Origin: a virus
Taxonomy: Duplodnaviria; Heunggongvirae; Uroviricota; Caudoviricetes
Direction: 5' to 3' (one strand)
DNA: 20,073 nt
IMG/VR virus record: IMGVR_UViG_2910649936_000002
Coordinates: 130,713 to 150,785 of that record
Both the position numbers and the translations under genes were made by a program. Shown one piece after another: positions 1 through 17,988 of this stretch. The notes under the pieces were generated by a model. It did not search any database, was not told where the DNA came from, and saw nothing but the letters and a program-made list of their open reading frames with translations. Numbering within the stretch: position 1 is the first letter of the stretch; every line of letters begins with the position of its first letter.

Positions 1-1
1 T

Positions 2-1203
2 GATTCTTACTGGCAAAATTTAGTCAAGAATGGTGCTATAGATATCACAACTATAACTGATGAGTCATTGAAAGAAAGTATTGACGAATATCGGGATTGG
101 TATGAAAAAGCCCTTGACGTGCAAGACACGATTGCAGACATGCAACAAGAATTACTTGATCTTGCCGTTGAGAAACTAGAAAATATAGAACAATATTTCG
201 AAAATCGTACCGATTATAATGATAACTTCGGATATCTTACCCCTCTTACTACTCTACAAGAAGCTGTAGATAAACTAACAAAAGAACTGGACAAGCAAGT
301 TTCTGACGGTGTAATTAAAGAGTTTTCTAACGAGTGGTATGAAAGCATGGAGCGCATTAATTCAGCGCAAGAAAAACTTTTTGAAGCCACTCTTAAAAAG
401 TATCAAGACATTATAGATAATCTTACTCGCATTAGTGATACTCTGGATAATTCCATTGCATTAAAAGAAGCTCGTGATGAACCGATTCTTGAATCTGATT
501 ATCAAAAGCAAATGGATATTAGTAATAAATCCATACAAGAATTATACGATAAACGTCAGGTATTATTAAAACAACAGGCAATTTATGATGTAGGTTCTGT
601 AAAATACGACGAAATCGCGGACGAGATTGCTGATATTGATGACGATATTTATGGACTTCTTACTGACATTGAAGAACTTAAAGATAAAATCTGGGAAGTC
701 AGATGGCAGCCTTTCTTTGATGGTCAGGAAGCATTGTCAGATCTAATTGATGAGACTGATGAATTTAGAAATCTTTTGGATTCTGATGCGTTTGTAAGTG
801 AAACTGGTGGATTGACGGATTCAGGTTTGGCTAATATTGCTTTAATAAGCCAATCTATGAATGCGGCGAAACAATCTATTGCAAATTACAGAAAAGCATT
901 AGAGAATCTACAAAAAGATTATGATAACGGTAATATCTCCTTAGAAGAATATAAGGAGAACAACAAAGAGTTTATCAATAATATTGCGGAAAATGTTGGT
1001 GTAGTTGAATCCTACAGGGACGAAATCGTTTCTCTTTGGGAAGAGATGGTTAAGGCAGAAAATGATGTCATCCAAGATTCAATTGATAAGCATCGTGAAC
1101 TTTTACAAGCGAAAAAAGATAATGACGATTACAGTAGAACTGTTAAAAATCAAGTTAAGGATATCAATGCGCTTCAGGCACAGATATCAGCGTTAGAATC
1201 GGT
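2..1203 (+). CDS. Tail tape measure protein, exon 1 (begins upstream of the window; interrupted by a group I intron)
   Basis: Frame 2 is open from base 2 (DSYWQNLVKNGAIDITTITDESLKESIDEYRDWYEKAL...), so TTG at 68 is not the true start. Acidic, helical/coiled-coil composition, upstream of Dit and Tal. The exon ends at ...GAA TCG GT (U1203), the predicted 5' splice site. Confidence 0.85.
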
Positions 1204-2750
1204 AAATATATTGCCGAATGTGTTTTAATTGCTGGGAACTCCTAAAGTTCTATAAACTACAACATAAGCATGAAATAAGGCTAAGTGTGAATGTGTGAAA
1301 ATTATAGAAATGGATATGCTAGATGCAATCTTCTAGGTCATAGACGTAAAATGGACAATCAGCAGCGAAGCCTCGAATAGAGGAACGTTCAACGATCAAT
1401 GGGTGATGAGTGTAACCCATGTAAGACCGCAAGCGATTGGCGGTTTGAAACAAACACACTGTTTATTAAGCAATTAAATATTATTCATAGAATCACGTTG
1501 AAACATACGTGATTTTTTCTTGCGTAACCTTATAAATCAAAAATTTAAAAAGAGAATAAAAAGAATGGAGGTGGAAAATGTTAGTAGAAAAACAAAAGAT
1601 TGAAGTTAGGTGGAATGGGAGCAATCGAAAATGGTATGAAGAAAAAGGGTATAAATTTACCAAAATAAGAGATGGTTTTATCGTCAAACCAGAAGATTTG
1701 CCTGATTACTCTCATCATAAAGTTGAAGTTATTTGTGATTTTTGTAATCGTCAATATATTTTAGAATACAGAGACTACTTAAAAAATATTAAAAGAAATA
1801 ACAAAAAATTTCATTGTTTTATTTGTGGAAACAGAAAACATATTAAAAACATTAATCATTCTACCTCAAAAAATAAGCTTTCCGTTGATGAAGTAATTAA
1901 AAGAATAGAGAGTAAAAATAAAAATAAATTGTTAAATCCAGAAGATTATAAAAATCAAAACACATCAAATTTGAAAGTATTGTGTGGTAGTTGTGGCAGT
2001 GAGTTTCTGACAAGTCTTAGTTCTATAAAAAATGGTGATGGAGCCTGTTTGAAATGTGCAAATAAAAAAACAAGTGAAAAGCAAAAACTTTCAAGCGAAG
2101 AGGTCAAACGAAGAATTGATGCTGTAAATAATAATAAATTGTTAAATCCAAAAGATTATAGAGATAATCATACACCAAACCTAAAAATAAAATGTGGGGA
2201 TTGTGGTGAAATTTACGTGACTACACTCGCAAATTATGAATATAATCAAAAGATACGATGCGATAAATGTTCTCAGAGAATAAGTGTTCCAGAAAGAAAA
2301 GTTATGGAATTATTAAATTTCTATAGTATCAATTATAAATATAACTATAGATTTTCTGATTGTAAAGGAAAAAACAGAGCACTTCCTTTTGATTTTTGGA
2401 TTGAAGATTTAAACACTATTATTGAAACAGATGGAAGACATCATTATCATTCCGTATGGGGCGAAGAACATTTTCAAAGAACAAAATTATACGATGGAAT
2501 AAAAGATAAATATTGTAAAAATAAGAACATACAACTTATTAGAATTCCTTATTGGGAATTTGATAATATAGAAGATATCTTAATAAAAAAATTAAATTTA
2601 AAACCTCTTAATCAAAACAAAAAAATAAAATACATACCCAAAAAGAAAATTGCTTAATTTTACAGAAGATATGATCTGAACTCATAGGAAACTATGAGGA
2701 GAGTGCTACTACTCTCCCACTTATGTAGCGAATAAGTGGAAACATAATTG
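1204..2750 (+). ncRNA. Group I self-splicing intron (IA-like) with an ORF in the P8 loop
   Basis: P1: exon UCGGU(1199-1203) pairs with GCCGA(1213-1217), with U.G at the splice site. P element AATTGCTGGGAA at 1227-1238, Q element AATCAGCAGC at 1357-1366, P7 GATCA(1394-1398)/TGATC(2672-2676) within S element AAGATATGATCT. P9 hairpin CTCATAG-GAAA-CTATGAG at 2681-2698, terminal G at 2750. Removal gives in-frame ...ALES-V-NNESAKAELKRL... Confidence 0.93.
1578..2657 (+). CDS. Intron-encoded putative homing endonuclease: repeated CxxC Zn-ribbon modules plus a C-terminal Vsr/DUF559-like (EDxHD-type) nuclease domain
   Basis: RBS GGAGGTG upstream. Six CxxC pairs, a duplicated module (KLLNPxDY...NLKxxCGxCG), and C-terminal PFDFWIEDLNTIIETDGRHHY...D..K...C..KNIQLIRIPYW. 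Very Lys-rich; lies between the P8 strands of the intron. Confidence 0.85.
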   Translation: MLVEKQKIEVRWNGSNRKWYEEKGYKFTKIRDGFIVKPEDLPDYSHHKVEVICDFCNRQYILEYRDYLKNIKRNNKKFHCFICGNRKHIKNINHSTSKNKLSVDEVIKRIESKNKNKLLNPEDYKNQNTSNLKVLCGSCGSEFLTSLSSIKNGDGACLKCANKKTSEKQKLSSEEVKRRIDAVNNNKLLNPKDYRDNHTPNLKIKCGDCGEIYVTTLANYEYNQKIRCDKCSQRISVPERKVMELLNFYSINYKYNYRFSDCKGKNRALPFDFWIEDLNTIIETDGRHHYHSVWGEEHFQRTKLYDGIKDKYCKNKNIQLIRIPYWEFDNIEDILIKKLNLKPLNQNKKIKYIPKKKIA

Positions 2751-4167
2751 AAACAACGAAAGTGCCAAAGCAGAACTTAAGAGACTCAGGAGTCAATTAG
2801 CTGATGCTGAAAGTGAACTTGAGCAAACGCAGAAAGATCGTGAATATGAGATAAGACAAAGTGGATATGATTCACTCAGTAGCGACCTTAACGAAGCACT
2901 TGATGATACTTTAAATAATGTCAAGTATAATGCTTCTGAGCAAGAGCAAGTTATTTCTGAAATGTTGAATCATATTGTTAATAATTACGCTGATGCTTAC
3001 GATAAAATAAATGAAATCATTCATAACACTGGCTTCACGCCATCAAAAGATTTTCAAGAAAATATCAATAACATAGGTTCACAATCTGGTGCTGAAAGTC
3101 AAGTTAATGATAGTAATACTATTGCTCCTGAATATAAGCCAGATGATTTCGTTACAGATACACCAACCGATCAGATTCAGTCTGATTCAAGTCAAGCGAA
3201 TAATGATAGTATAGAATCTGAAATTGAAAAAGAGCCTAATATAGATAATCGTCCCGTTGCATTAATTGAATTAAAACCTAAATCTGTATCTGTACAGGAA
3301 GGTAAAAGTACAACTATAACTGCTAATATCCGTCCTACGGATGCAGCAAATAAAAAAGTGCAATGGACATCATCAAATACTAGTATCGCAACAGTTAGTA
3401 ATGGAACTGTCAAAGGTATAAAGCCTGGTAGTACAACAATTACATGTATGGCAATGGATGGTTCGGGAATATCTGCTACATGTGGCGTGACCGTTACAAA
3501 AAAGCCTGATCCACCTAAGCCAAAACCGCCATCTTCTGGTGGGGATGGAATTCCGCGAGTAGGTGACGTTGTAACCTTTACAGGTACGTATTACTATGAT
3601 TCTTGGGGACAATCCCCAGCCGGGAATTTATATTCCGGCGTTAAAGGTGGCGTTGTTATTGATAGCTACTCTGGCACAGAATACGGAGGTTCTTCAAGTT
3701 TTCACGGAGGTTTGGGTATTCATATTAAAAGTGCCGATGGCAGATATGGTGATTTGGGATGGGTATCGCTTAGTCAAATTAGCGGATATGCAAAAGGTAC
3801 TAGAGGTGTTACTTCTGCATTAGAAATTGCTAAAGTTAACGAACTTGGCACAGAGCTAATCATGAGACGTGGTGGAGATGATTATACTGTATTGCAATAT
3901 GGTGATGCCGTTTTACCTAAAAACTTGAGTGATAACATGTTTACTTTAGCTGGACATGCAAATGAGATCATAAGTGGACTTGGAAATAATACTACTAATA
4001 GAGAACTTTCTATTACTAACCATTATGATAGTTTATTGACTGTGAATGGGAATGTGGATAAAAATGCATTACCTGAATTAAAGAAGTTACTTGAAGAATC
4101 TTATCGTTATACCTCTCAAAAATTGTACAAAGACGCTGGATTCATGGGAATGAAGAGAAAAATATAA
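2751..4167 (+). CDS. Tail tape measure protein, exon 2 (C-terminus with an Ig-like Big_2 domain and an SH3-like region)
   Basis: Frame is open from 2752 (NNESAKAELKRLRSQLADAESELEQTQKDREYE...) into the 2962 ORF. Big_2 pattern at ~3253-3498 (IRPTDAANKKVQWTSSNTSIATVSNGTVKGIKPGSTTIT). The ending GYAKGT...VNELGTELI...GDAVLP is typical of tape measure C-termini. Confidence 0.85.
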
Positions 4168-4187
4168 TATATTAATGTGCAATTCTC

Positions 4188-4196
4188 TGTTAAAAT
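4188..4196 (+). promoter_or_regulatory. Possible extended -10 promoter (TGnTAAAAT) for the moron
   Basis: TGTTAAAAT about 30 nt upstream of ATG 4228. The region is very AT-rich, so a chance match is possible. Confidence 0.35.
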
Positions 4197-4227
4197 AATT
4201 ATAAATATATTAATGGAGGATTGCACC

Positions 4228-4701
4228 ATGTCAATTGTAATTAAAAACCAAATTCAAATTCCATCAGTTTCTGTTATGCCCGGCTTCGGTTCAAAAATTA
4301 ATTTGTCTTCTAATACTACCGTAACAGCGCGTGAATGTAAATTATTTGAAATTGCATTACATATGGTCTGCAAACTATATCAGCATGAAAAGCGTAACTT
4401 ATCTGAATTTCCTAAAATGAACATTCTATTTACTTATGATTTTACTTTCGAATTTCAAAATAATAGTGCTACAAATTTAGGATTATATATGAATCTCATT
4501 ATATATTCAATGCAAAATATAAGAAATAATATTATTACGGAATTAAATTATTTGGCTATATATATTGAAGAATTATGTCACTGCGTTTGGCATATTGATG
4601 ATGAGTTAATAGTAAAAAACAAAGTAATTGAAGTATTTAAATTGTCTGGATTAAATGTTACAGAGGAATTATTTTATTTAAAAGGAGGTAAGGTCGAATA
4701 A
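4228..4701 (+). CDS. Hypothetical moron protein (157 aa) with an EELCH zincin-like motif
   Basis: GGAGG RBS precedes ATG 4228, which is preferred over GTG 4177. Very AT-rich. Contains YIEELCHCVWHIDDE. Lies between the tape measure and Dit genes. Confidence 0.7.
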   Translation: MSIVIKNQIQIPSVSVMPGFGSKINLSSNTTVTARECKLFEIALHMVCKLYQHEKRNLSEFPKMNILFTYDFTFEFQNNSATNLGLYMNLIIYSMQNIRNNIITELNYLAIYIEELCHCVWHIDDELIVKNKVIEVFKLSGLNVTEELFYLKGGKVE

Positions 4702-4874
4702 TGTCGTCAAATGAAGCTTCCAACAAATCTCGTGATTCATATTATGACACAATTATTAATGACTTGATTAACGATCTTCATCAGGAAGAAGCTATAAATT
4801 TATCTTGTTCTGACTGGAAGGTAAATGTTACTAACATTACGCCTTATACATTAGATAAAAGTAAGACTGTATAA
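4701..4874 (+). CDS. Small hypothetical protein (57 aa; MSSNEASNKSRDSYYDTIINDLINDLHQEE...SKTV), not in the ORF track
   Basis: TAATG stop/start overlap with the upstream gene, AAGGAGGT RBS at 4682-4689, and a terminator-like hairpin downstream. Confidence 0.65.
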   Translation: MSSNEASNKSRDSYYDTIINDLINDLHQEEAINLSCSDWKVNVTNITPYTLDKSKTV

Positions 4875-4894
4875 TTGTAATATAAGTATTTATT

Positions 4895-4929
4895 GAGGTG
4901 TCATTATGGCACCTCTAATTTTATTTTTT
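4895..4929 (+). terminator. Intrinsic terminator-like hairpin after the moron
   Basis: GAGGTGTCA-TTA-TGGCACCTC stem (one G.U pair) followed by TAATTTTATTTTTT. Confidence 0.65.
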
Positions 4930-4950
4930 AAGTGAGGTGATAAATAAAAA

Positions 4951-6033
4951 ATGATATTAGTGTGTAAAGATTTCAACTATGACAATAAATCTCTTATAAA
5001 TCAAAAATATATGTCTGTAAATTTTGAAGATGATACTAGTCTACCATCTTCTATTTCTCGTACTATGGAAACAAGCGATATGAATAAATATCGCCCTGAA
5101 GAAAATGGTTTTGGTATTACATATTCAGAAGTATTAGAATTTGAGGTGCACATTGTAAAGAATTTTGATGAATTCACATCACAATCCGAAATGGAGTTTT
5201 CTAATACCGAATACGAAAAGCTAGTTTCTTGGTTGACGTCGCCACAAACCAATCAATGGATGGAAGTCACAAAAGAAAGTGGAGAGAAAACCAAAGTCAA
5301 AGGTTACTTCTCTTCTGTTGAGCCATACGATAATTGGGGAATTTGTTATGGAGCAAAATGCACTTTTACATGCAACTCTCCGTTCTCTTATACTAGTAAG
5401 GAAATAGAACAGACTATTTCCGGTGTTACAAATTTCCTTGTCAACAACGAAAGTAGCGAATTATATGATTACGTATATCCTACACTCTTAATTGAGCCTA
5501 CCAAAAATGAAGAAATCTATATCCATAATTTATCAGATTCAATAATTCTTGAAAATAGTACAATCACACTTTCAGAGGATACCAGTTCAAACATCACCGC
5601 ACTTCAACAAAAAATTTCTTCTTATGCAGCTTTAAATAATCTAACCGTTGAGTATGTCATTGATGATACAACACAAGACTTAAAACTGATTTGTGATAAT
5701 ACTGGATTGCTATTTTATATGACGGACTCATACGGTATTAAAAATAAATATGTTGCTTATTATTTGAAAGCGGATGGACAATATTTTATATGTCAAAGTG
5801 GATTTTTCTACTGCAAATTATCTCAGGCGTTGAAAGTTAAAATTAATTGTAAAAATCTTGGAATGTATGATTCATTAGGGCGCCCTGTTCTTTTTGACAC
5901 TATGGGTATTCAGGATGAAGATGAAATATATTGGCTTCGTTTGATACATGGAAATAATAGTTTCAGGGTTATGGGAAATTGTAAAATAACTATCTCCTAT
6001 CTTGAAGCACATAAAGGAGGACTAATTTCATGA
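4951..6033 (+). CDS. Distal tail protein (Dit)-like
   Basis: Lies between the tape measure and Tal genes. GAGGTG RBS. Dit-like motifs: N-terminal DFNYDNKSL, LVSWLTSP, FTCNSPFSY, and C-terminal WLRLIHGNNSFRVMGNCKITISY. Confidence 0.75.
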   Translation: MILVCKDFNYDNKSLINQKYMSVNFEDDTSLPSSISRTMETSDMNKYRPEENGFGITYSEVLEFEVHIVKNFDEFTSQSEMEFSNTEYEKLVSWLTSPQTNQWMEVTKESGEKTKVKGYFSSVEPYDNWGICYGAKCTFTCNSPFSYTSKEIEQTISGVTNFLVNNESSELYDYVYPTLLIEPTKNEEIYIHNLSDSIILENSTITLSEDTSSNITALQQKISSYAALNNLTVEYVIDDTTQDLKLICDNTGLLFYMTDSYGIKNKYVAYYLKADGQYFICQSGFFYCKLSQALKVKINCKNLGMYDSLGRPVLFDTMGIQDEDEIYWLRLIHGNNSFRVMGNCKITISYLEAHKGGLIS

Positions 6034-8774
6034 AAATTAATCGTGATTTTTATAATCGAAATGAGCCGTCTCGGATTTATCTGTCTACTCCAAACAAGCA
6101 ATTATTATGCGCTTTAAATAGTGTAGATATAGATAGTGTAGATTTTCAAGGGAATTGCAATGACATATCTACTATAAGCTTCAATATAAACCAGTATATT
6201 GAGGATGATTCAGGAAGGCAAATCGAAGCAAATGGATACCAACTTATATCTAAATATACGAAATTATATGTAACAAATATTGGCTGGTTTATATTAGGAG
6301 CACCAGAAACTCATCATAATGGAACGTATGAATATAAAACAATCAATGCTTCTTCTGCTCAAGTTGAATACAGTCAGGTTCCTCTTGATGGTTGGAAGGT
6401 AAATCGTGGTACTACAGATTCACTTGAAATGCTCGTCGAAGGTAATGTAGAAATTATTAACGATGTAGAGTTCGCAAAAGAAAATATCAAATTTCATTAT
6501 CCCGAAAAACCCGAATTGAGTTTAGTAGATATAATAGTTTCAAAGGTTCCCGGTTGGCAAGTCGGCTATGTAGATAACATCCCTAAAACTTATGAAAGTA
6601 TTGAAAATGGAGAAATTGTTACAAAAGATGTACTACTCGCAGATGAAGTGGGTACGTTTGATATTAACTCTAGTAACTGTTTCTCTTTTTTAATGCAAGA
6701 TTTTGAAAAATATTTTAATTGTGTTGTGGATTTCGATTATTTAAATTTTGTAGTTAATTTTTACAGAGTAGAAAATTTTGGAAAAGATACAAGCGTTACG
6801 ATTGGATTTAGAAATATTGAAAATTCTAACGACGTTGTAATTGACGAAGATAATATTTTTACTAAGTTTCGTGTTTCAGGTGGAGATAATCTTGGCATTG
6901 AACAATTTAATGGCGGAAGTAATTATCTTACAATTATTGAAGACTATTGGTTAAATAACAAATATCTAAGTGACTCTACTATTCAAAAATATAAGGCTTG
7001 GACTGCATTTTGTAATGTTGCAAGATATCAATATGGGGAATATTCTAAAACATGGAATACGTTGCAAGAAGAAATCTCTGAATTATATAATCGTATTCCA
7101 GTCAGTGATTGTGATCCTAGTAATTGGTCTAGTTTAAGTGATTCTGCTTTACTAAATTTAAAATCGGATTACGAAGCTCAAAAACTAGGATATGAAAAAA
7201 TATATGTAGATGATGAAGGAAACTTCGATATAGAAGCATTAGACGCTTCACCAGATGCAAATACCTATCATCAAATTGTAGATACTATTCTTCCTAATAT
7301 TGACATAGAAATTAATAACAGAGGTTTGGAGTCCTCACTAGATATTGAAGATTATATAGATAATTATTATACAGACTGGGATTATTATGGTATTAATGAG
7401 CTTACTATAAGATTACAATCCTATCAAGATATTGTAAATCTATTGAAAAAAGATCACTATGATTTAACTTGGGAAGAATATCAAGAAAAATCAAAGGAAG
7501 ACATTGAAAAATACCCAGTGCAAACTTCAGACGGATTTGAGGACAAGCACAATGAATATATAAAAAATGCAGAACAGTTAGATGATAGCAATATCGATTC
7601 ATGCGCATACGCTTTGAAACAAAGGCAAACCGAAGCAGATATAAAACAAGAACAGCAAGACGAAGTTAATTCAAACCGTTCTTCTCTAGCACAAAAAATG
7701 GATATGAAAACATGGCAGGGACAAGAAACTTTACAAAGTGAAGCTTCAACTGGTTTCACCCAAAAAGAGTTGGATGAGATATCACATATAATTAATCAAA
7801 GTACATATGTAAATGAAAATATATTTGTCTCTTCTACCGAAGGACTTACAGATACAATATTGATGCAGCAAAAATTATGTGAAACTGCTCTTGATGATTT
7901 ATCTGCATATTCTATACCCCAAGCTACTTATACGACTACAATGAATAATATACTTTCTGCCTTTGGAAATGAAATGCATGCACATGATTTATATTATGGT
8001 AATTTTATTAGACTTGGACTTACAGATACATATTATGTAAAATTACGAGTTATGAGTATATCCTTCAATCCATGCTTATACAATAACGACTTTACTATCC
8101 AGTTTTCCAATATGATTAAGTCTGGAAAAGCTCGTAATGATTTTGTATCACTTCTAGATATGGCTGGAAATCTAAGTAACTCATCTGTAGACACTAGTTA
8201 CTCCGGCAATCCACAAATTACTGATGACAACATCTATCAACTTTTACAAAAGTTATTGCAATCCTCTGCCTTTAACAATAAAGTAGACCATATCGTAAAC
8301 AATAATCCAGGAGGAACCGGAAACAGCTATCTTAAACCAGGCGATATTTATCAGAATAATGGTTTTTTTCAGTATATTCAGTCTGAATTAATTGCTGCCG
8401 GAGAAATTGTTGCGAATAGTGGAGATTTTAAAGATTTACAAGCATTAGTTGCTGCCATTGATAATTTGTTGGCTGGCAATGTAAGTGCAGAACTAGCCCA
8501 TATTATCAATCTTACTGCTAAAAATGTAAATATCGATGAAGCTGTAATTCGTGATTTAATTGCTGCTCAAATAACTGTATCTATGCTTCAGGCAGGTGAT
8601 ATATCTGCAAATAAATTTCATATCATTTCCGATGATGGAGGGCTGTCTATTGTTGGAAATACAATGCAGTTTAAAGATAAAAACGATACTGTACGCATAC
8701 AAATTGGAAGAGATTCTAACAACGACTTTACTTTTGTATTATATGATGAAACAGGCAAGGGAATACTTATTGAT
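6030..8774 (+). CDS. Tal/tail spike (baseplate hub) protein, exon 1
   Basis: ATGA overlap with Dit and an AAAGGAGG RBS. N-terminal hub-like region, then GNFIRLG...VKLRVMSISFN and repetitive beta-rich segments. The apparent TAA (8775-8777) is the first three bases of the IStron. Confidence 0.8.
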
Positions 8775-9240
8775 TAAATGTGAGCCGCACACTTGTGACT
8801 TTAGTCATGAGTTAGGCTGACAAATAGTCAGTGTATAGGGAAACCTGTACATAGAGACGTAAAACCGTCCAATATACTACCTGAATTGCTGGAAATGCGT
8901 AAAGCTAAACTAACTACAACATAAGGATGAAACATACCTAAGTGTGAATGTTGCGAAAGCAGAAAAAATAGTTTAGATGGAATATGGTTAAATCCTAAGT
9001 TCTATACATTTACAAATCGCAAATCAGCAGCGAAGCTCCAAATAGGAGAACGTTCAACGACCATTCCTCTTGAGGGAAGTACATGCAAGCGCATGGAAGT
9101 GGGTAGACCCTAACGTGTGATGACGAGGGATAAGATATGGTCTGTGCTTATGTGAAAACATAAGAAGTTCATAAGAGAACTGTATAGGAAGTAGCGTTCC
9201 TATATGAACGACAACCTCGAAAACGATTAAAGAACCTATT

Positions 9241-10440
9241 GTTCTTATCTATTTATTTAAAAATTTAATATTTCTCGCTTTCAAACGGAGAATAAATAAA
9301 GTAGAAGGCGAGGTGATATTGTGGAAAAAGCATTTAAATATCGAATTTACCCAAACAAAAAACAGCAAGAGTTAATTCAAAAAACTTTTGGGTGTGTAAG
9401 ATATGTTTATAATTATTTCTTAGCTTTAAGGATAAAAGAATATAAAGAAAACAAAAATTTTTTATCTTATAATGATACAAGTAAGTTACTTACTCAATTA
9501 AAGAAAGAACTAATCTGGCTGAAAGAACCAGATAAAGATTCTTTGCAGAAATCGTTAAAGGATCTGGATATGGCATACCGAAAATTTTTTAAAGAACATG
9601 CTGGTTTTCCAAAATTCAAGTCTAAGAAAAATAATCATAAATCTTATCGGACAAGTCGTACAGCCAACAATATTACTTTTGTAGAAAAGCATATTAAGTT
9701 GCCAAAACTTGGATATGTAAAAACAAAAGATAAACAAATTCCACAAGGAAGAATTTTAAATGCTACCATCTCACAGGAACCAAATGGACATTATTATTGC
9801 TCATTATGTTGCACAGATGTTGAAATGCCACAATATCAAAAAACTCGTTCTAATGTTGGAGTAGATTTAGGTATTGTAGATTTTGCCATATTATCTGATG
9901 GAAATAAAATTGAGAACCAAAGATTTTATGAAAAATCAGAAAAGAAGCTTGCTAAGTTACAAAGATCAATGTCAAGAAAAACAATTGGCGGTAAGAATTG
10001 GAACAAAGCGAGAATTAGAATTGCAAATTTACAGAAACATATTTCTAATCAACGTACTGATTTTTTACACAAACTTACAACAAAGATTGTTAAAGACTAT
10101 GACGTTATCTGCATTGAAGATTTAGAAGTCAAGTCTATGAAAGAAACTGATTATACAATAAGGAACAAACGAGTTAGTGATGTTTCTTGGTATGAGTTTC
10201 GAAGACAATTAGCTTATAAATGCCAATGGTACGGAAAGCAACTTGTCATTGTAGATAAATATTATCCCTCATCACAGATTTGTAGTGCGTGCGGAAAACG
10301 AGATGGTAAGAAATCAGAAGATATTAGAGTGTGGGTATGCCCTCATTGCGGCGCAGAATTAGACAGGGACTTAAATGCCGCAACCAATATTTTAAATGAA
10401 GGATTACGAATATTAAATAGTTAAATAAATAGATAAGAAC
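9241..10440. repeat. Perfect 20-bp inverted repeat flanking tnpB (9241-9260 / 10421-10440)
   Basis: GTTCTTATCTATTTATTTAA and TTAAATAAATAGATAAGAAC. Pairing extends imperfectly to 9263-9272/10409-10418 and 9235-9239/10442-10446. Confidence 0.9.
9321..10424 (+). CDS. tnpB: TnpB RNA-guided endonuclease (IS200/IS605 OrfB)
   Basis: N-terminal KAFKYRIYPNKKQ...FGCVRYVYN (HTH_OrfB_IS605). RuvC residues in GVDLG, IEDL and DRDLNAATNI are all intact. Zn finger SSQICSACG...CPHCG. GTG start with GAGGTG RBS. Confidence 0.96.
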   Translation: MEKAFKYRIYPNKKQQELIQKTFGCVRYVYNYFLALRIKEYKENKNFLSYNDTSKLLTQLKKELIWLKEPDKDSLQKSLKDLDMAYRKFFKEHAGFPKFKSKKNNHKSYRTSRTANNITFVEKHIKLPKLGYVKTKDKQIPQGRILNATISQEPNGHYYCSLCCTDVEMPQYQKTRSNVGVDLGIVDFAILSDGNKIENQRFYEKSEKKLAKLQRSMSRKTIGGKNWNKARIRIANLQKHISNQRTDFLHKLTTKIVKDYDVICIEDLEVKSMKETDYTIRNKRVSDVSWYEFRRQLAYKCQWYGKQLVIVDKYYPSSQICSACGKRDGKKSEDIRVWVCPHCGAELDRDLNAATNILNEGLRILNS

Positions 10441-10548
10441 CGTAGGAACTACGGGGATAGCCTAGGTAAACTTGTCTCGTTAGAGATATTGACTAGGAAC
10501 CCTATGACTTTAGTCGTGGGAGGTTCAGTCAACAGGTGTTAAAGATTC
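10425..10548 (+). ncRNA. Predicted TnpB omega-RNA/reRNA (scaffold in the right end; guide from flanking exon 2). Boundaries approximate.
   Basis: Hairpin CCGTAG-GAA-CTACGG just after tnpB, right-end hairpin at 10501-10520, element end at 10528. The guide would begin TCAACAGGTGTTAAAG. Based on established TnpB biology. Confidence 0.7.
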
Positions 10549-13060
10549 AGCTATTAGCGATGGACTAATAAAAAATGACATGATTGCTAATGGTACGATA
10601 CAAAAAGATAAACTTGGTTTTAAAGTTGTTGAAACAGATGAAAACGGAAAGGTTTCTATTACAGAAATATTAGATCCAAGCGGAGGTTCTCTCGGTGTTT
10701 CATACACCGAAATGCAAAATAAAGTAAAGGATCTTGGTGAACAAGTAACGGAAATTACTCCATATACAATTGTAATGGAAAATGAATATCAAAATATTCC
10801 CTGTGTTCAAGGTACTGCAAAAGACAGTTTTTTAATTGAAATTCCATTTACTGGATATGCTGGAAGTCTTCAAACCGCTACAACCGTAAATGTAGGTGTA
10901 TTACCTTCTGGTATTACATTAGGTTCTAACACCCCTGCAACTGATACTAGTTCTGGAAAAGTCGTTTTAAATGTAGCAGATGGAGCAGATTTTGGTGGTA
11001 TAGATATACTAACAGGATATATCATTTTAACATTTACTATTAATAGTCATGTAATTACCAAACGTTTTACATGGACAAAAACAAATGATGGTTCTTCTTC
11101 TGATGCTTCCTTTTATACCTTAGATTTATCAACTCAAATTGTTTTAAAATCCGATTCATCTCTCACTCCCCCATTCATTACTTTGAATTCATATTTAAAA
11201 CAGGGTACTTCTAAAACTCCATATTCTGGTAGGTTTGTTATTAAAGAATCCACAGATGGTTCCACGTACAATACAAAATATCTTTCTTCCTCTGATGAAG
11301 CTTCAAAGGAATATACTATATCTTCCATTGATGTAAAATCTATTGAGTGTATTTTATTCGAATCTGGTGGAATTACAAATGAATTAGATGTGAAAACTAT
11401 AGCTGTAATCACCGACTCTAGTTATTTAGAGTCCGAAATCACGCAAATTACAGACACAGTTACCGAATTAAGTTCAACTGTTGATATGCATACAAAGGAA
11501 ATATCGCAAAAAGCATCACAGACTGATGTAACAACCGCTATTAACAATTATGATAATACTACAGTAGAGACTATACGTGAGCAAGTAGCGGAACATACTA
11601 CAAAAATTGGTGAAATCACCTCTGAAGTCTCTGATGTAAAAACTACGGTAAACACTAAAGCTGACGGCTCTACAGTTACAGAATTACAAAAACAAGTAAG
11701 CACTTTGGAACAAGATGCCGAAGGTTTTAAATTAGAAGTTTCTAATACATATGCAACAAAAGATGAGCTTAATGAGTCTTCTGAGACACTTCAATCTACT
11801 ATCGAGCAAACCGCAGCAGGAATTAATCAAACAGTTTCCGATTTATCTGGTAATGTAAGCAGTATTGGTCAAACAGTAGGTGAAATCAGTCAAGAAGTTG
11901 AAGATGCAAAAGGAAATATTACAGATTTGCAGCAAACCTCAGAAGAAATTAGCATGATAGTTGGAAACAAACAAGATTTAATTCCGGCAAATATTCGTTA
12001 TATCAGAGATTGGCTAAATGGAAATACCGTAGATACTGTTAATAGGTGGACAGAAATACAAGTAATAGTAAATGATACAAATTTAGCTTCTGGCGAAACC
12101 AATATTGTTTTACAGAAAAATGTTACTGTCACATCAGATATTACAATAGATAACCTTGAAAATTATATTGATGCAAGTACAGAAACGTATGTCGAAAGCG
12201 AAGAAACTGGCTGGCACTATCTACAAATCGATTTAGGCGAGAACAACACTTTTGATGCTGGTTATATTACTGTTTGGCATAGATTTGATGATTCAAGAAA
12301 ATATAATCATAAATTAGAAATATCAGCAGATGGTGAAACATGGTTTGTTTTATTTGACAGTGAAAAATATGATAAATATACAGAGACAAATGAAGGTCGT
12401 ATGTATATGATTAGCGATGGTTTAGTTAATAAAAATCTCGCTTTTATTAAATTAGATATGCAATCTGTAGTATTGAAAGTGCAGGAAAACGAAGAAAATT
12501 TTGCTTCTATTGAAACAGAAATTGACAGCGTTATTACTCGTGTAGAAAGTACAGAAGATACCGTACAGGAAATTCAAAATGAAGATATACCTGGATTACG
12601 CAATGATGTAAAACAACAGGTAGCGGAAATAGCTGCTACTTCTGATTCTATAAAAAATACTGTCATAGAACTTGAAGGTGAAGTTCAAAGGCAAGCTGAA
12701 GAAATATTAACTACTAATGAATGGAAAGTATCTCTCGCTAACATAGGCGCGTATGATGGGAAATATGCTACTGAAACAGTTAATATGACGCTTACTAGCG
12801 ATGGACTTACAATTGTTAGATCCGCAAGTAAAGGATATAGAACACAGCTTACAGGTGATACAATCGCTATAGAATATGATGATGGACGCGGTAATTATGA
12901 ATCTGTTATGGGTATACAAAAAGATCAAATGTATTTAACACGACTAAAAGTAAAAAATGGAATTGACCATTATACATTAAAAGAGCTTCCTATTTCATAT
13001 ACTTCTGGTAATAAAACAATTGGGTGTCTTGCATTTATTTCAAGTACAGGAAATTCATAA
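10529..13060 (+). CDS. Tal/tail spike protein, exon 2 (coiled-coil stalk, F5/8-type C/discoidin-like domain); spliced product 1758 aa
   Basis: Frame is open from 10529 (STGVKDSAISDG...). Heptad-like Thr/Ser/Gln-rich repeats, and IRYIRDWLNGN...WTEIQV...YLQIDLG...ITVWH at ~11993-12410. Confidence 0.8.
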   Translation, partial: STGVKDSAISDGLIKNDMIANGTIQKDKLGFKVVETDENGKVSITEILDPSGGSLGVSYTEMQNKVKDLGEQVTEITPYTIVMENEYQNIPCVQGTAKDSFLIEIPFTGYAGSLQTATTVNVGVLPSGITLGSNTPATDTSSGKVVLNVADGADFGGIDILTGYIILTFTINSHVITKRFTWTKTNDGSSSDASFYTLDLSTQIVLKSDSSLTPPFITLNSYLKQGTSKTPYSGRFVIKESTDGSTYNTKYLSSSDEASKEYTISSIDVKSIECILFESGGITNELDVKTIAVITDSSYLESEITQITDTVTELSSTVDMHTKEISQKASQTDVTTAINNYDNTTVETIREQVAEHTTKIGEITSEVSDVKTTVNTKADGSTVTELQKQVSTLEQDAEGFKLEVSNTYATKDELNESSETLQSTIEQTAAGINQTVSDLSGNVSSIGQTVGEISQEVEDAKGNITDLQQTSEEISMIVGNKQDLIPANIRYIRDWLNGNTVDTVNRWTEIQVIVNDTNLASGETNIVLQKNVTVTSDITIDNLENYIDASTETYVESEETGWHYLQIDLGENNTFDAGYITVWHRFDDSRKYNHKLEISADGETWFVLFDSEKYDKYTETNEGRMYMISDGLVNKNLAFIKLDMQSVVLKVQENEENFASIETEIDSVITRVESTEDTVQEIQNEDIPGLRNDVKQQVAEIAATSDSIKNTVIELEGEVQRQAEEILTTNEWKVSLANIGAYDGKYATETVNMTLTSDGLTIVRSASKGYRTQLTGDTIAIEYDDGRGNYESVMGIQKDQMYLTRLKVKNGIDHYTLKELPISYTSGNKTIGCLAFISSTGNS

Positions 13061-16998: not shown

Positions 16999-17988
16999 CT
17001 ATGAACTTAAATATTGATAATGATGATATTTAATACCTTCTTCATTAACGGTACAGTACATCATCGTAGTTTCAGGTTTGGAATGCCCTGCAAATTTCAT
17101 TACTTCTTGCAATGGCATTCCCCTATTTAGGGCATTTGTAAGTGAGGTTCTTCTAAATCTATGTGGGTGTGCATTACTTACATTTGCTTTAAGACCTATT
17201 TCCTTAACAATATATTCAATACCAGATTTACTTAATCGGTTATGCGGATATTTTTTCCCTACGAAAAGAGCTTCATTTTTATCTATCCTACTTTTTAAGT
17301 ATTCTTTTAAATACAAATTACTTTTTTCATTTATGTATACGATTCGTTCTTTTCCACCTTTACCATATACAATTAAATCCTTATTTCCAAATCGAATATC
17401 GGTGATATTTAATGCAACTAATTCAGACACCCTTATGGCAGTAGAATATAAAAATTCTATTAATGCCATATCTCTTATATTTTTACACTTTCTGAGCATT
17501 ATTTCTCGCTCTTCGCTTGTAAATGGCTTTTTTATTTTTTGTTCAACTTTAATGGTTTCTACTAACGCCATTGGATTTATTGATATTTTTCCTCTATCAC
17601 GTAGCCATATAAAAAATGTATTAAATATTGCTCTTACATTTTTCAAAGTTTGGTTGCATGCCTTTCTAATTGCTTTATACATTGTTAGATATTCTGATAT
17701 GTCTGTACTCAAAATATGTTTAACATTTTTATTTATATATGATAATAAACGATGTAATTCATAATCATATCTATTGACAGTTTTTACTGCCAATCCTGAT
17801 AATCGTTTTGATATGATAAAGTCGGATAATTCTTTTGTCCATGTATTATCATTTACACGTAATGTCGTATTTTCAACAATTTCACACCCAACAAAAACTT
17901 GATTCATTGTTGCTTTCAATTCACGTAACTGATTTTCATTTAACACAAATTGCATTTTCCTAATAATTTCTAAAATTTTTTCTTCCAT
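16999..17988 (-). CDS. Tyrosine recombinase (XerC/D-like), putative shufflon invertase
   Basis: Catalytic motifs STAIRVSEL (R), GKGGKER (K), HPHRFRR (HxxR), GHS (H) and TTMMY (Y). N-terminal SAM-like region. GGGAG RBS. Located between sites 2 and 3. Confidence 0.93.
   Translation of the reverse strand: MEEKILEIIRKMQFVLNENQLRELKATMNQVFVGCEIVENTTLRVNDNTWTKELSDFIISKRLSGLAVKTVNRYDYELHRLLSYINKNVKHILSTDISEYLTMYKAIRKACNQTLKNVRAIFNTFFIWLRDRGKISINPMALVETIKVEQKIKKPFTSEEREIMLRKCKNIRDMALIEFLYSTAIRVSELVALNITDIRFGNKDLIVYGKGGKERIVYINEKSNLYLKEYLKSRIDKNEALFVGKKYPHNRLSKSGIEYIVKEIGLKANVSNAHPHRFRRTSLTNALNRGMPLQEVMKFAGHSKPETTMMYCTVNEEGIKYHHYQYLSS

Follow-up and report, generated by a model that had tools for sequence, protein, structure and literature searches.

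The RNA stem formed by the long inverted repeat around tnpB likely helps to decide, as far as can be read from the sequence, between the splicing and the guide-RNA fate of an IStron transcript. The repeat lies in a phage DNA stretch of 20,073 nt, analysed as a whole and called the window below, and belongs to an IStron assigned to the IS200/IS605 type ("group A") that interrupts a phage tail gene. A stem looping out the ORF is a published IStron feature, so the repeat described in an earlier note is not new in kind; taken alone, the IR stem (H3) is a textbook IStron trait and its observation ordinary. New here, from cofolding and comparative alignment, are two helices beside its 5' arm, H1 and H2, which pair with the intron's 3' end. 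Following P9.2 and the GAACGA motif is a ~60-nt strand (9213-9272) whose successive parts are complementary to the tail preceding the 3' splice site, to the guide hairpin SL-c in its loop and 3' strand, and to the tnpB 3' end together with AAGAACC and the 5' strand of the guide hairpin SL-a. The same bases are thus needed by the splicing fold and by the guide fold.

Identity and boundaries of the element

Group A IStrons insert after TTGAT and have the 3' terminus 'TCAG' (review PMC13565253); the published end criteria, in the text available, include the absence of terminal inverted repeats. The window element shows TTGAT, the TCAG terminus and subterminal palindromes at 8796-8809 and 10505-10518 (Table 1). 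The stop codon of the host ORF, TAA at 8775-8777 (ORF list), follows directly after TTGAT. On the right, a GTTCA(G/A) motif closes all 28 aligned ends (GAGGTTCAG in most), beyond which the flanks diverge, and the terminal G of the intron, at the 3' splice site and right boundary of the transposon, is predicted to be G10528. When exon 1 (to 8774) is joined in silico to exon 2 (from 10529), the frame continues without a stop, and the joined reading gives an ungapped 99-aa alignment, spanning the junction, to a protein of a Terrisporobacter phage. Among full-length public phage records, Clostridioides phage ES-S-0173-01 is the closest, at 70% nucleotide identity.

The left-end palindrome probably also lies within intron P1, by analogy with the P1 location of the 5' palindrome given for IStrons in the accessible text of Tourasse 2014 (PMC4227781). 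At the Rfam gathering threshold, no intron was returned across the whole window, nor in L001 and L002, which are IStrons by blastn; this mode thus missed known IStrons, and its blanks are therefore no evidence of absence here. GAACGA is invariant in 25/25 relatives, and motif and place agree with the description available from Tourasse 2014. Group A elements have an IA2-like group I core on the 5' side, and the window element matches the general group I model there (RF00028, Table 1). As expected for group A, TnpB is encoded inside the intron, downstream of P9.2 and GAACGA. It contains the Pfam domains HTH_OrfB_IS605, OrfB_IS605 and Cas12f1-like_TNB and matches the ISDra2 TnpB chain 8bf8_A with an E value of 4.9e-95. 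A Y1 (HUH) TnpA was not found among the plus-strand ORFs of at least 60 aa in 8775-10528, none of which lies outside tnpB; a second plus-strand ORF (9883-10125, 80 aa) is nested inside it. Lacking tnpA in this interval, the copy would be non-autonomous, and tnpA-less copies are common in the family (Tourasse 2014, PMC4227781, text available). The TTGAT TAM, the TCAG 3' terminus and tnpA-less copies liken the element to CdISt1/CdiIStrons of Clostridioides difficile and to ISDra2, as does the location of the guide RNA, in the tnpB 3' region and reaching the right end.

Table 1. Features of the IStron and of the RNA structures predicted within it (window positions)
Feature	Position	Strand	Basis or detail
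TTGAT target/TAM, final bases of exon 1	8770-8774	+	5' exon ends in T
Whole IStron (group I intron, tnpB, guide-RNA region)	8775-10528	+	terminates ...GGTTCAG
Left-end subterminal palindrome (TGACTTTAGTCATG)	8796-8809	+	direct repeat D9 with right-end palindrome 10505-10518
Group I ribozyme core (positions 1-253 of the Rfam model)	8827-9164	+	RF00028, 66.4 bits, gathering 50, E 4.3e-16
P9.2-like hairpin (9183-9190/9197-9204), then GAACGA (9206-9211)	9183-9211	+	sequence
H1 5' strand AACCUC	9213-9218	+	pairs with 10520-10525; cofold
H2 5' strand ACGAUUAAAG	9223-9232	+	pairs with 10508-10517; cofold
H3 (IR stem) 5' arm	9235-9272	+	repeat search, conservation, co-variation
Hairpin burying the tnpB Shine-Dalgarno (GAGGUG, 9310-9315), reaching the GTG start	9266-9321	+	RNAfold
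tnpB	9321-10424	+	367 aa, GTG start, TAA stop
H3 3' arm	10409-10446	+	covers tnpB stop, AAGAACC flank and SL-a 5' strand
SL-a, first conserved guide hairpin (CCGUAG-GAA-CUACGG)	10440-10454	+	RNAalifold: 6 pairs, near-invariant
SL-b, long guide hairpin	10461-10497	+	strong compensatory variation
SL-c, last guide hairpin = right-end transposase palindrome	10501-10520	+	RNAalifold: 8 pairs, compensatory changes
Tail GAGGUU (H1 partner, 10520-10525) plus CAG	10520-10528	+	right-end alignment, cofold, exon joining

The inverted repeat and its companion helices

The arms of the repeat are 38 nt long, complementary at 34/38 positions (89%) and 1136 nt apart. The details given by the earlier note hold on the sequence: a perfect 20-bp core (9241-9260 with 10421-10440), a downstream arm that includes the tnpB stop codon (TAA, 10422-10424), an extension, GTAGG 10442-10446, that pairs with 9235-9239 (one G.U) after a mismatch at 9240/10441, and double use of 10440-10445 as the 5' strand of the hairpin CCGTAG-GAA-CTACGG. 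Across 200 shuffles of 8000-11500 that preserve dinucleotides, the mean length of the longest perfect inverted repeat was 12.6 nt, and a single shuffle reached 20. A chance origin was rejected because of the extensions and the conservation of the repeat in 25/25 relatives.

The comparison of IStron homologs proposed in that note bears out its view of a long-range stem looping out tnpB: H3 is an RNA-level, conserved helix, found 26-36 nt past GAACGA in all 25 non-identical relatives, with compensatory changes. The automatic (MAFFT) alignment misplaces the 5' arm of L045, L061 and L064 and has uneven gaps in the AT-rich arms; column-based pair counts therefore understate H3 pairing, and an anchored ungapped comparison was used instead. 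Over the variable part of 20 distinct arm pairs, cognate arms pair with a mean of -19.0 kcal/mol, versus -12.8 kcal/mol for non-cognate ones, an advantage matched by 0/5000 permutations; the cognate arm is the best partner in 8/20. G.U pairs outnumber A.C on the plus strand (34 vs 21, with 10 of the 21 A.C at one position). Opposite CCGUAG, at the stem's base, positions 1-6 are paired in 16-20 of the 20 distinct arms, C-to-U changes leaving wobbles, and position 7 is an A.C mismatch in 10/20; the 5' arm pairs poorly with CCGUAGG in five of 25 relatives (L041, L052, L063, L065, L072). In L045, L061 and L064 the 5' arm precedes an extra cargo of ~400 nt, a gene for a 64-aa Cro/C1-type HTH protein together with a promoter-like site; what the stem encloses is thus the entire cargo, with tnpB as one part of it.

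The 24 nt immediately 5' of this arm also pair with the final ~20 nt of the intron. All cells of the six H1 pairs are paired across 25 sequences; three pairs vary, on the 5' side only and always to a wobble. H2 is 97% paired over seven well-aligned pairs in the same number of sequences, and two of its positions show compensatory changes (CG to UA in five sequences, GC to AU in three). No variation occurs on the 3' side of H1 or of the SL-a overlap, and the support there consists of one-sided, wobble-preserving changes only. H1 and H2 together form 16-22 bp at -15.9 to -21.4 kcal/mol in 25/25 sequences, reached by at most 1/200 shuffles. The whole structure is 82.8% paired, against 37-47% with partners slid by 1-3 columns. 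Since the relatives share ancestry, the shuffle statistics overstate independence; read from the alignment, the CG to UA change in H2 occurs in at least three lineages (L047/L048/L070, L064 and L078).

The earlier note had the inverted repeat itself bringing the ribozyme core to the 3' splice site. The repeat, however, ends 82 nt short of that site; in the folding model it is H1 and H2 that provide the bridge and the stronger clash with the guide fold. Tourasse, Stabell and Kolsto (2014, NAR, PMC4227781), in the text available, report for all IStrons that P9.2 and the GAACGA motif are followed by an "IR stem" around the ORFs, with which the window agrees in position and motif. They give group A stems 6-10 bp with equal GC and AU and assign AU-rich stems of 15-34 bp to group B, whereas the window combines a 34/38 AU-rich stem with H1 (6 bp, 3 GC and 3 AU) and H2 (10 bp). 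The short, balanced stem describes group A without defining it; the reported repeat does not have this trait, H1 would fit it, and H1 may be the helix drawn for group A in that work.

The group B IStron of Clostridium phage c-st (L080) has a 35-nt, 97% complementary AU-rich repeat that follows GAATAT and encloses an OrfB gene. Its 3' arm (4898-4932) comes to within 4 nt of the terminal ...ACGG and a single stem thus suffices, whereas in the window the pairing is split into H3, H2 and H1, with the hairpin SL-b left between H3 and H2/H1. In the T4 sunY (nrdD) intron, Michel et al. reportedly found in 1992 that a long-range pairing activates the remote 3' splice junction. This is an IA2 phage intron in which an ORF puts ~1 kb between core and 3' splice site, and a peripheral element must pair with the bases that immediately precede the 3' junction; it has no transposon or guide RNA, and so no competing second function.

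Overlap with the guide-RNA scaffold

For 28 right ends, among them those of intron-less elements, RNAalifold gives three hairpins between the tnpB 3' end and the right boundary; 13/26 pairs show compensatory changes. Conserved structured RNA reaching that boundary, beyond which the guide runs on into the flank, is what is expected of a TnpB guide RNA (omega RNA/reRNA), and the predicted scaffold fits it. Candidate pseudoknot strands (GAACC 10437-10441 or the SL-a loop GAAC, with GGUUC 10522-10526) are invariant and thus offer no covariation by which to judge the pairing. The H2 partner (10508-10517) is the loop plus 3' strand of SL-c, and ~13 nt (10434-10446) of the 38-nt 3' arm of H3 fall in the conserved scaffold. 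SL-b alone is compatible with both folds and remains a hairpin in the splice-fold models.

The proposal that the helix disfavours omega-RNA folding is borne out in two-strand folding, as SL-a bases are shared and SL-a is lost: its probability falls from at least 0.92 (23/25 sequences) to at most 0.01 (25/25) on adding the upstream strand. For the window, this model, which has two free strands and leaves out the 1.1-kb loop, kinetics, ribosomes and TnpB, gives -76.4 kcal/mol with all three helices, -64.0 without H1/H2, -44.8 without the inverted repeat and -35.3 for the guide fold only.

The nine intron-less relatives checked all keep SL-a, SL-b and SL-c; the AT-rich sequence of the 3' arm is also kept in seven, L060 and L076 being the exceptions. 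The motifs of the H1/H2 5' strands are absent upstream of tnpB in 9/9, and these strands are, by this comparison, intron-specific. Upstream duplexes with the tnpB 3' end reach mostly -22 to -36 kcal/mol in intron-less elements, against -47 to -71 kcal/mol in most IStrons; the exceptions, L059 (-49.3) and L060 (-44.3), have no inverted repeat with the arm.

Splicing or guide production

That IStron splicing conflicts with guide production, as the earlier note took to be known, agrees with the antagonism reported in the available text of the Zedaveinyte preprint (bioRxiv 10.1101/2023.11.20.567912) and of Mortman and Sternberg (2026, PMC13521648). According to these texts, one transcript of IS607 IStrons serves as intron or guide RNA; the guide 3' hairpin and pseudoknot overlap 3' splice-site bases, and a weaker guide fold raises splicing. 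Whether such an RNA splices or cleaves depends on how stable the last guide hairpin is at its base (PMC13521648, text available), which fits an alternative partner such as H1/H2. These systems are the IS607-type Cbo/Cse elements, mostly as ORF-less mini-constructs, whereas the window element is of the IS605 type. In CboIStron (IS607) ORF-less mini-constructs, trimming the guide region from its 5' side improves splicing and ~18-20 nt of the right end suffice, as far as the accessible text goes; the long distal stem may therefore be dispensable for catalysis itself.

The IR stem plus H1/H2 would, rather probably, clamp the intron 3' end to the ribozyme, and the guide-RNA fold is predicted to be excluded because the clamp uses the same bases. 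On read-through tail-gene transcripts, the waiting 5' arm would capture the 3' arm during synthesis; H3 would tether the H2/H1 strands beside SL-c and the tail, SL-c would be opened, ...CAG presented to the core, and the transcript spliced. Where the 5' strand is missing or TnpB binds first, the transcript would become TnpB mRNA plus guide RNA; alternatively, ribosomes reaching the tnpB stop codon, inside the 3' arm, may melt H3 and lead into the same route.

The switch proposed in the earlier note is partly supported, in its sharing of bases between helix and guide RNA, but not in its promoter element in this window. Transcripts starting downstream of ~9260 were to fold the guide and read-through ones to splice, which is very unlikely here: a sigma-70-like site was not found on the plus strand between 5' arm and tnpB start (9273-9320) of the window, and the six sites that the scan gave in 2.1 kb (8.7 expected by chance) are all elsewhere. 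Among the relatives, 11/25, in four lineages, do have a strong promoter-like site in this spacer: L001 matches the consensus at 12/12 positions, L045, L061 and L064 at 11/12, L004, L068 and L069 at 10/12, and L047, L048, L049 and L070 carry TTGACA-17 nt-TATAAG, read from the sequence (the consensus scan gives L048-L050 a weak 9/12 match only). The window and 13 relatives have neither a match of at least 10/12 nor a TTGACA-17-TATAAG site. In the window and 11 other promoter-less relatives that were folded, a hairpin burying the Shine-Dalgarno sequence fills the spacer instead; 5/6 bases of this sequence are paired in the window and 5-6/6 in 11 of the 12 (RNAfold). The bases at the inner end of the 5' arm serve a second time as its outer 5' strand, and its stem sequences vary among relatives yet remain complementary. 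RNAalifold gave no consensus for this spacer; the automatic alignment was poor, and single-sequence folds were used. In the window, this hairpin would hold most transcripts on the splicing path.

Were the stem a structural helix only, it would close the ORF-bearing intron loop like peripheral stems around homing-endonuclease genes, the guide overlap would have no regulatory effect, and the guide would come from spliced-out or processed RNA, or from kinetic trapping plus TnpB binding. This is unlikely, although Tourasse 2014 (PMC4227781, text available) counts the IR stem as intron secondary structure, the scaffold takes up just ~13 of the 38 arm nt, and five relatives lack the pairing into CCGUAGG: H1/H2 take the SL-c 3' strand and the tail in 25/25 relatives, the intron fold, once formed, precludes the guide fold, and published experiments, in the text available, indicate that such competition matters in IS607 IStrons. 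A processing or expression signal is very improbable. The 20+10-bp duplex would then be an RNase III substrate or mRNA end-clamp, whose cleavage frees tnpB mRNA from the ribozyme and makes a guide 5' end near 10421-10440. A long, near-perfect double-stranded RNA helix is present in all relatives, and from 10434 there is a weak Rfam match to the Enterococcus small RNA Ref70 (32.7 bits vs gathering 115, a lead only); however, the intron-less relatives checked lack the long helix, and cleavage would separate the 3' splice site from the core when an essential-looking tail gene must splice.

A feature acting at the DNA level, with the arms either forming the terminal inverted repeats of a tnpB cassette nested in the element or offering a slippage/recombination substrate that deletes the ORF, is least to be expected and scarcely plausible. 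ORF-less IStron derivatives were observed, and repeat-mediated excision was discussed for group B (Tourasse 2014, PMC4227781, accessible text). Yet the true transposon ends are TTGAT/...GGTTCAG with subterminal palindromes, G.U pairs exceed A.C on the plus strand, and two scans of viral contigs for ORF-less mini-IStrons (GAACGAYAA, 60-90 or 90-120 nt, then AACCGTAGGAA) gave 1 and 3 matches, all unrelated and none an IStron. Nested transposon ends were rejected, as no intron-less relative has the 5' arm next to tnpB.

A broader and doubtful extension of the clamp, put forward tentatively, is that the ~60-nt strand after P9.2 acts as an "anti-guide" that assigns the transcripts of IS605-type IStrons, via an internal promoter or tnpB translation. 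The strand would remodel every guide-RNA element except one hairpin, and its being present and free, or not, would set splicing against guide production. An internal promoter downstream of the strand would serve in 11/25 relatives, three with their own Cro-like regulator; in promoter-less copies the Shine-Dalgarno-burying hairpin would restrict tnpB translation, and a ribosome at the stop codon would melt the stem and free the scaffold for the just-made TnpB.

Nowhere is it clearer than in IStrons that a single RNA has to act as ribozyme, mRNA and nuclease guide. The published work on IS607-type elements sets out the conflict and how the stability of the last guide hairpin tips the balance, and the searched text of the Zedaveinyte et al. 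preprint and PMC13521648 leaves a competing upstream intron strand unnamed; in the IS605-type relatives compared here, by contrast, the competitor is defined, co-varying and made up of three helices. As the 3' arm varies in a part (10409-10433) that the conserved guide scaffold does not include, it lends itself to clean compensatory tests, and some relatives naturally carry an internal promoter while others do not. Splicing versus guide production can thus be tested directly in IS605-type elements, which stand close to ISDra2 TnpB, the reference enzyme for genome editing.

The element, its setting and its relatives

The window covers the tail-to-lysis region of a phage or prophage, with tail proteins, an integrase and an endolysin recognized by a PHROGs search. 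The features of its IStron (8775-10528) match those of published group A (IS200/IS605) IStrons as given in the available text of Tourasse et al. (2014, PMC4227781) and PMC13565253; no tnpA occurs among the ORFs of the element, and its TnpB is close to ISDra2 TnpB (E 4.9e-95 to 8bf8). Right ends of relatives read ...GAGGTTCAG, a few with near variants, and the flanks diverge beyond, so that the 3' end is put at G10528. The two exons (exon 1 to 8774, exon 2 from 10529) share a frame, and their fusion gives an ungapped alignment across the junction to a Terrisporobacter phage protein (residues 127-225, junction at 200/201).

The group I intron is missed by an Rfam gathering scan with default filters and scores 66 bits in a permissive sub-window scan; the introns of two related loci, L001 and L002, are likewise missed at gathering. 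Elsewhere, an HNH/homing-endonuclease ORF (1578-2657; phrog_559, E 3.1e-52) lies between structural genes (2-1228 and 2962-4167) and could belong to a second intron or be a free-standing homing endonuclease; the Rfam scan at gathering, the mode that missed the IStron's own intron, found no intron at this site.

Features of the window
Feature	Position	Strand	Basis or remark
TTGAT	8770-8774	+	sequence
Tail-gene ORF stop TAA	8775-8777	+	directly 3' of TTGAT
Left subterminal palindrome	8796-8809		repeat search
Group I ribozyme core	8827-9164	+	Rfam, 66.4 bits
GAACGA motif, preceded by hairpin	9206-9211	+	3' of ribozyme core
H1, AACCUC/GAGGUU	9213-9218 / 10520-10525	+	co-fold; ends 3 bases 5' of splice site
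H2, ACGAUUAAAG/CUUUAGUCGU	9223-9232 / 10508-10517	+	co-fold
H3 (inverted repeat)	9235-9272 / 10409-10446		repeat search
SD-burying hairpin	9266-9321		single folds
tnpB	9321-10424	+	Pfam
SL-a (guide hairpin)	10440-10454	+	RNAalifold, near-invariant
SL-b (guide hairpin)	about 10461-10497	+	RNAalifold
SL-c (guide hairpin)	10501-10520	+	RNAalifold
Right subterminal palindrome	10505-10518		repeat search
Integrase	16999-17988	-	PHROGs
Endolysin	from 19045		PHROGs

TnpB-based scans yielded 38 genome and 39 viral loci, and blastn with the intron part of the window gave 28 loci with long intron matches, 2 of them truncated. The MAFFT alignment A1 (n=25) holds 23 of these 28 (identical rows removed), the window and Clostridioides phage ES-S-0173-01 (L078). 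Twelve more loci have the same right end and lack the intron; one is 5'-truncated and three others (L042-L044) have no left end.

A long-range stem and two further helices

The inverted repeat around tnpB lies where the earlier note had placed it, with 38-nt arms that are 89% complementary and 1136 nt apart, and a perfect 20-bp core (9241-9260/10421-10440). The tnpB stop codon (10422-10424) falls within the downstream arm, whose extension (10442-10446) includes bases also used by the hairpin CCGTAG-GAA-CTACGG in its 5' strand (10440-10445). A perfect 20-mer arises in 1/200 dinucleotide shuffles of 8000-11500 (mean longest repeat 12.6), and a chance origin is excluded because the stem is kept across relatives. 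Anchored on the invariant AACCGTAGG, the comparison finds it in 25/25 sequences, beginning 26-36 nt past GAACGA. Over its variable part, an arm binds its cognate partner more strongly than a non-cognate one (-19.0 vs -12.8 kcal/mol, 20 distinct arm pairs), a gap matched by 0/5000 permutations, with the cognate arm the best partner in 8/20; the compared sequences are related, so that these statistics and those for H1 and H2 below overstate independence. Compensatory changes include U-A in place of C-G at position 10 (L047 group), ATCTAT/ATAGAT in the window vs ATATAT, and the series U-A/U.G/C-G at position 21. Cells at positions 1-27 comprise 452 Watson-Crick, 34 G.U, 21 A.C (10 of them at one position) and 33 other combinations. 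This comparative evidence marks the inverted repeat as an RNA stem that is conserved and co-varies.

In three loci (L045, L061, L064) an additional 400 nt, with a 64-aa Cro/C1-type HTH gene and a promoter-like site, follows the 5' arm, so the stem surrounds the entire cargo. The HTH gene, which is oriented divergently from tnpB (in L045 1147-1341 on the minus strand; Pfam HTH_26, E 1.5e-17), may encode a regulator of tnpB expression. Among nine intron-less relatives checked, 7 keep the 3' arm sequence and all 9 lack the 5' arm, save for an 8-nt complement in L046, L055 and L062. These IS605 elements carry TCTTATAT or TTTTATAT, complementary to ATATAAGA of the 3' arm, about 25 nt 5' of the tnpB start and just upstream of the ribosome-binding site, which may represent a seed or remnant of the long stem.

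The earlier note was thus right about the repeat, and missed that the 24 nt upstream of its 5' arm pair with the intron end. Co-folding of the strand after P9.2 with the 3' region predicts two helices, H1 and H2; the right-end hairpin supplies the 3' partner of H2 with its loop and 3' strand. In A1, pairing holds in 100% of H1 cells (three varying pairs, each changing to a wobble) and in 97% of H2 cells, the latter with CG to UA in five sequences and GC to AU in three. The full structure is 82.8% paired, vs 37-47% with partners shifted by 1-3 columns. Per sequence, H1 and H2 form 16-22 bp at -15.9 to -21.4 kcal/mol in 25/25, equalled by at most 1/200 shuffles; their 5' strands occur in 0/9 intron-less relatives checked. 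L049 and L050 combine an L048-type 5' linker with a main-type right end, which gives them a single H2 mismatch, and appear to be recombinants between IStron lineages with two right-end types.

Proposed competition with the guide RNA

RNAalifold, applied to 28 right ends that include intron-less elements, yields three guide hairpins, with compensatory change in 13/26 pairs, and predicts no conserved structure upstream of SL-a. Since, in addition, the AT-rich spacer is wholly missing in L060, L067 and L076, the conserved scaffold starts near AAGAACC (about 10434). The overlap of the repeat with this scaffold is limited to ~13 nt of the 3' arm; the 3' partners of H2 and H1 take in the 3' strand of SL-c and the tail.

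The region 10434-10577 gives a weak match (32.7 bits, against a gathering score of 115) to the Enterococcus sRNA family Ref70 of Rfam, from AAGAAC through SL-a and the beginning of SL-b, and Ref70 may in its turn represent a guide RNA of TnpB or an IS605 right end. Each of three GAAC(C) copies, at 10437-10441, 10446-10449 and 10497-10501, is a potential partner of the tail GGUUC (10522-10526), as a candidate for a guide-RNA pseudoknot or the SL-c base; the third varies only from C to U, keeping wobble pairs (L047, L060, L067, L076).

In a two-strand model, which takes no account of kinetics, ribosomes, TnpB or the 1.1-kb loop, the window folds at -76.4 kcal/mol with all three helices allowed, -64.0 with the H1/H2 5' strands blocked, -44.8 with the 5' arm of the repeat blocked, and -35.3 with both blocked (the guide fold). 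Modelled SL-a probability is at least 0.92 in 23/25 sequences for the 3' region alone and at most 0.01 in 25/25 with the 5' strand added. The function proposed here we infer throughout from sequence, comparison and folding models. Transcribed first, the 5' strand would catch the emerging 3' arm (H3) ahead of SL-a closure and keep the H2 and H1 strands beside SL-c and the tail; SL-c would open and ...CAG be offered to the ribozyme core. Were the 5' strand missing or displaced, the guide RNA would form. Such capture agrees with published IS607 IStron results, at least in the text available, where a weaker guide fold gives more splicing (Zedaveinyte et al., bioRxiv 10.1101/2023.11.20.567912) and the base stability of the last guide hairpin sets the outcome (Mortman and Sternberg 2026, PMC13521648).

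Possible promoter choice or translation coupling, and known IStrons

The earlier note had the switch depend on transcripts starting downstream of the 5' arm; a promoter scan finds no promoter-like site between that arm and tnpB in the window. Near-consensus sigma-70-like promoters do occur there in 11/25 relatives (locus positions ~1400-1490): strong sites in L001 (12/12 consensus matches), L045/61/64 (11/12) and L004/68/69 (10/12), and TTGACA-17 nt-TATAAG in L047/48/49/70. These promoters stand in place of a predicted SD-burying hairpin of the window's type. Single folds of the window and 11 promoter-less relatives (L050 and L078 left out) bury 5-6/6 Shine-Dalgarno bases in 11/12, and in the window the hairpin extends to the tnpB GTG start, its outer 5' strand overlapping the inner end of the 5' arm (9263-9272). 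Its stems vary yet remain complementary (CUCGCUUUC/GAAGGCGAG in the window, CCUUUCACUU/AAGUGAAAGG in L051), and its loop has a conserved GGAGAAU motif. A ribosome halted at the stop codon would occupy the 3' arm; together with the buried Shine-Dalgarno, this makes translation coupling a candidate, and a live alternative to promoter choice.

The repeat is the 'IR stem' described for all IStrons in the available text of Tourasse et al. (2014, PMC4227781), where group A stems are short and balanced and group B stems long and AU-rich, whereas the window has a group A element with a long AU-rich stem. In phage c-st, the stem of the group B IStron measures 35 nt at 97% complementarity, with 4 nt between its 3' arm and the 3' end. 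The searched text of the Zedaveinyte preprint and PMC13521648 names no upstream competitor strand. Both the stem and the conflict between splicing and guide production have been published; sequence and folding models add here a long AU-rich stem in a group A variant, a predicted tripartite competitor strand, and a putative dimorphism of promoter vs SD hairpin.
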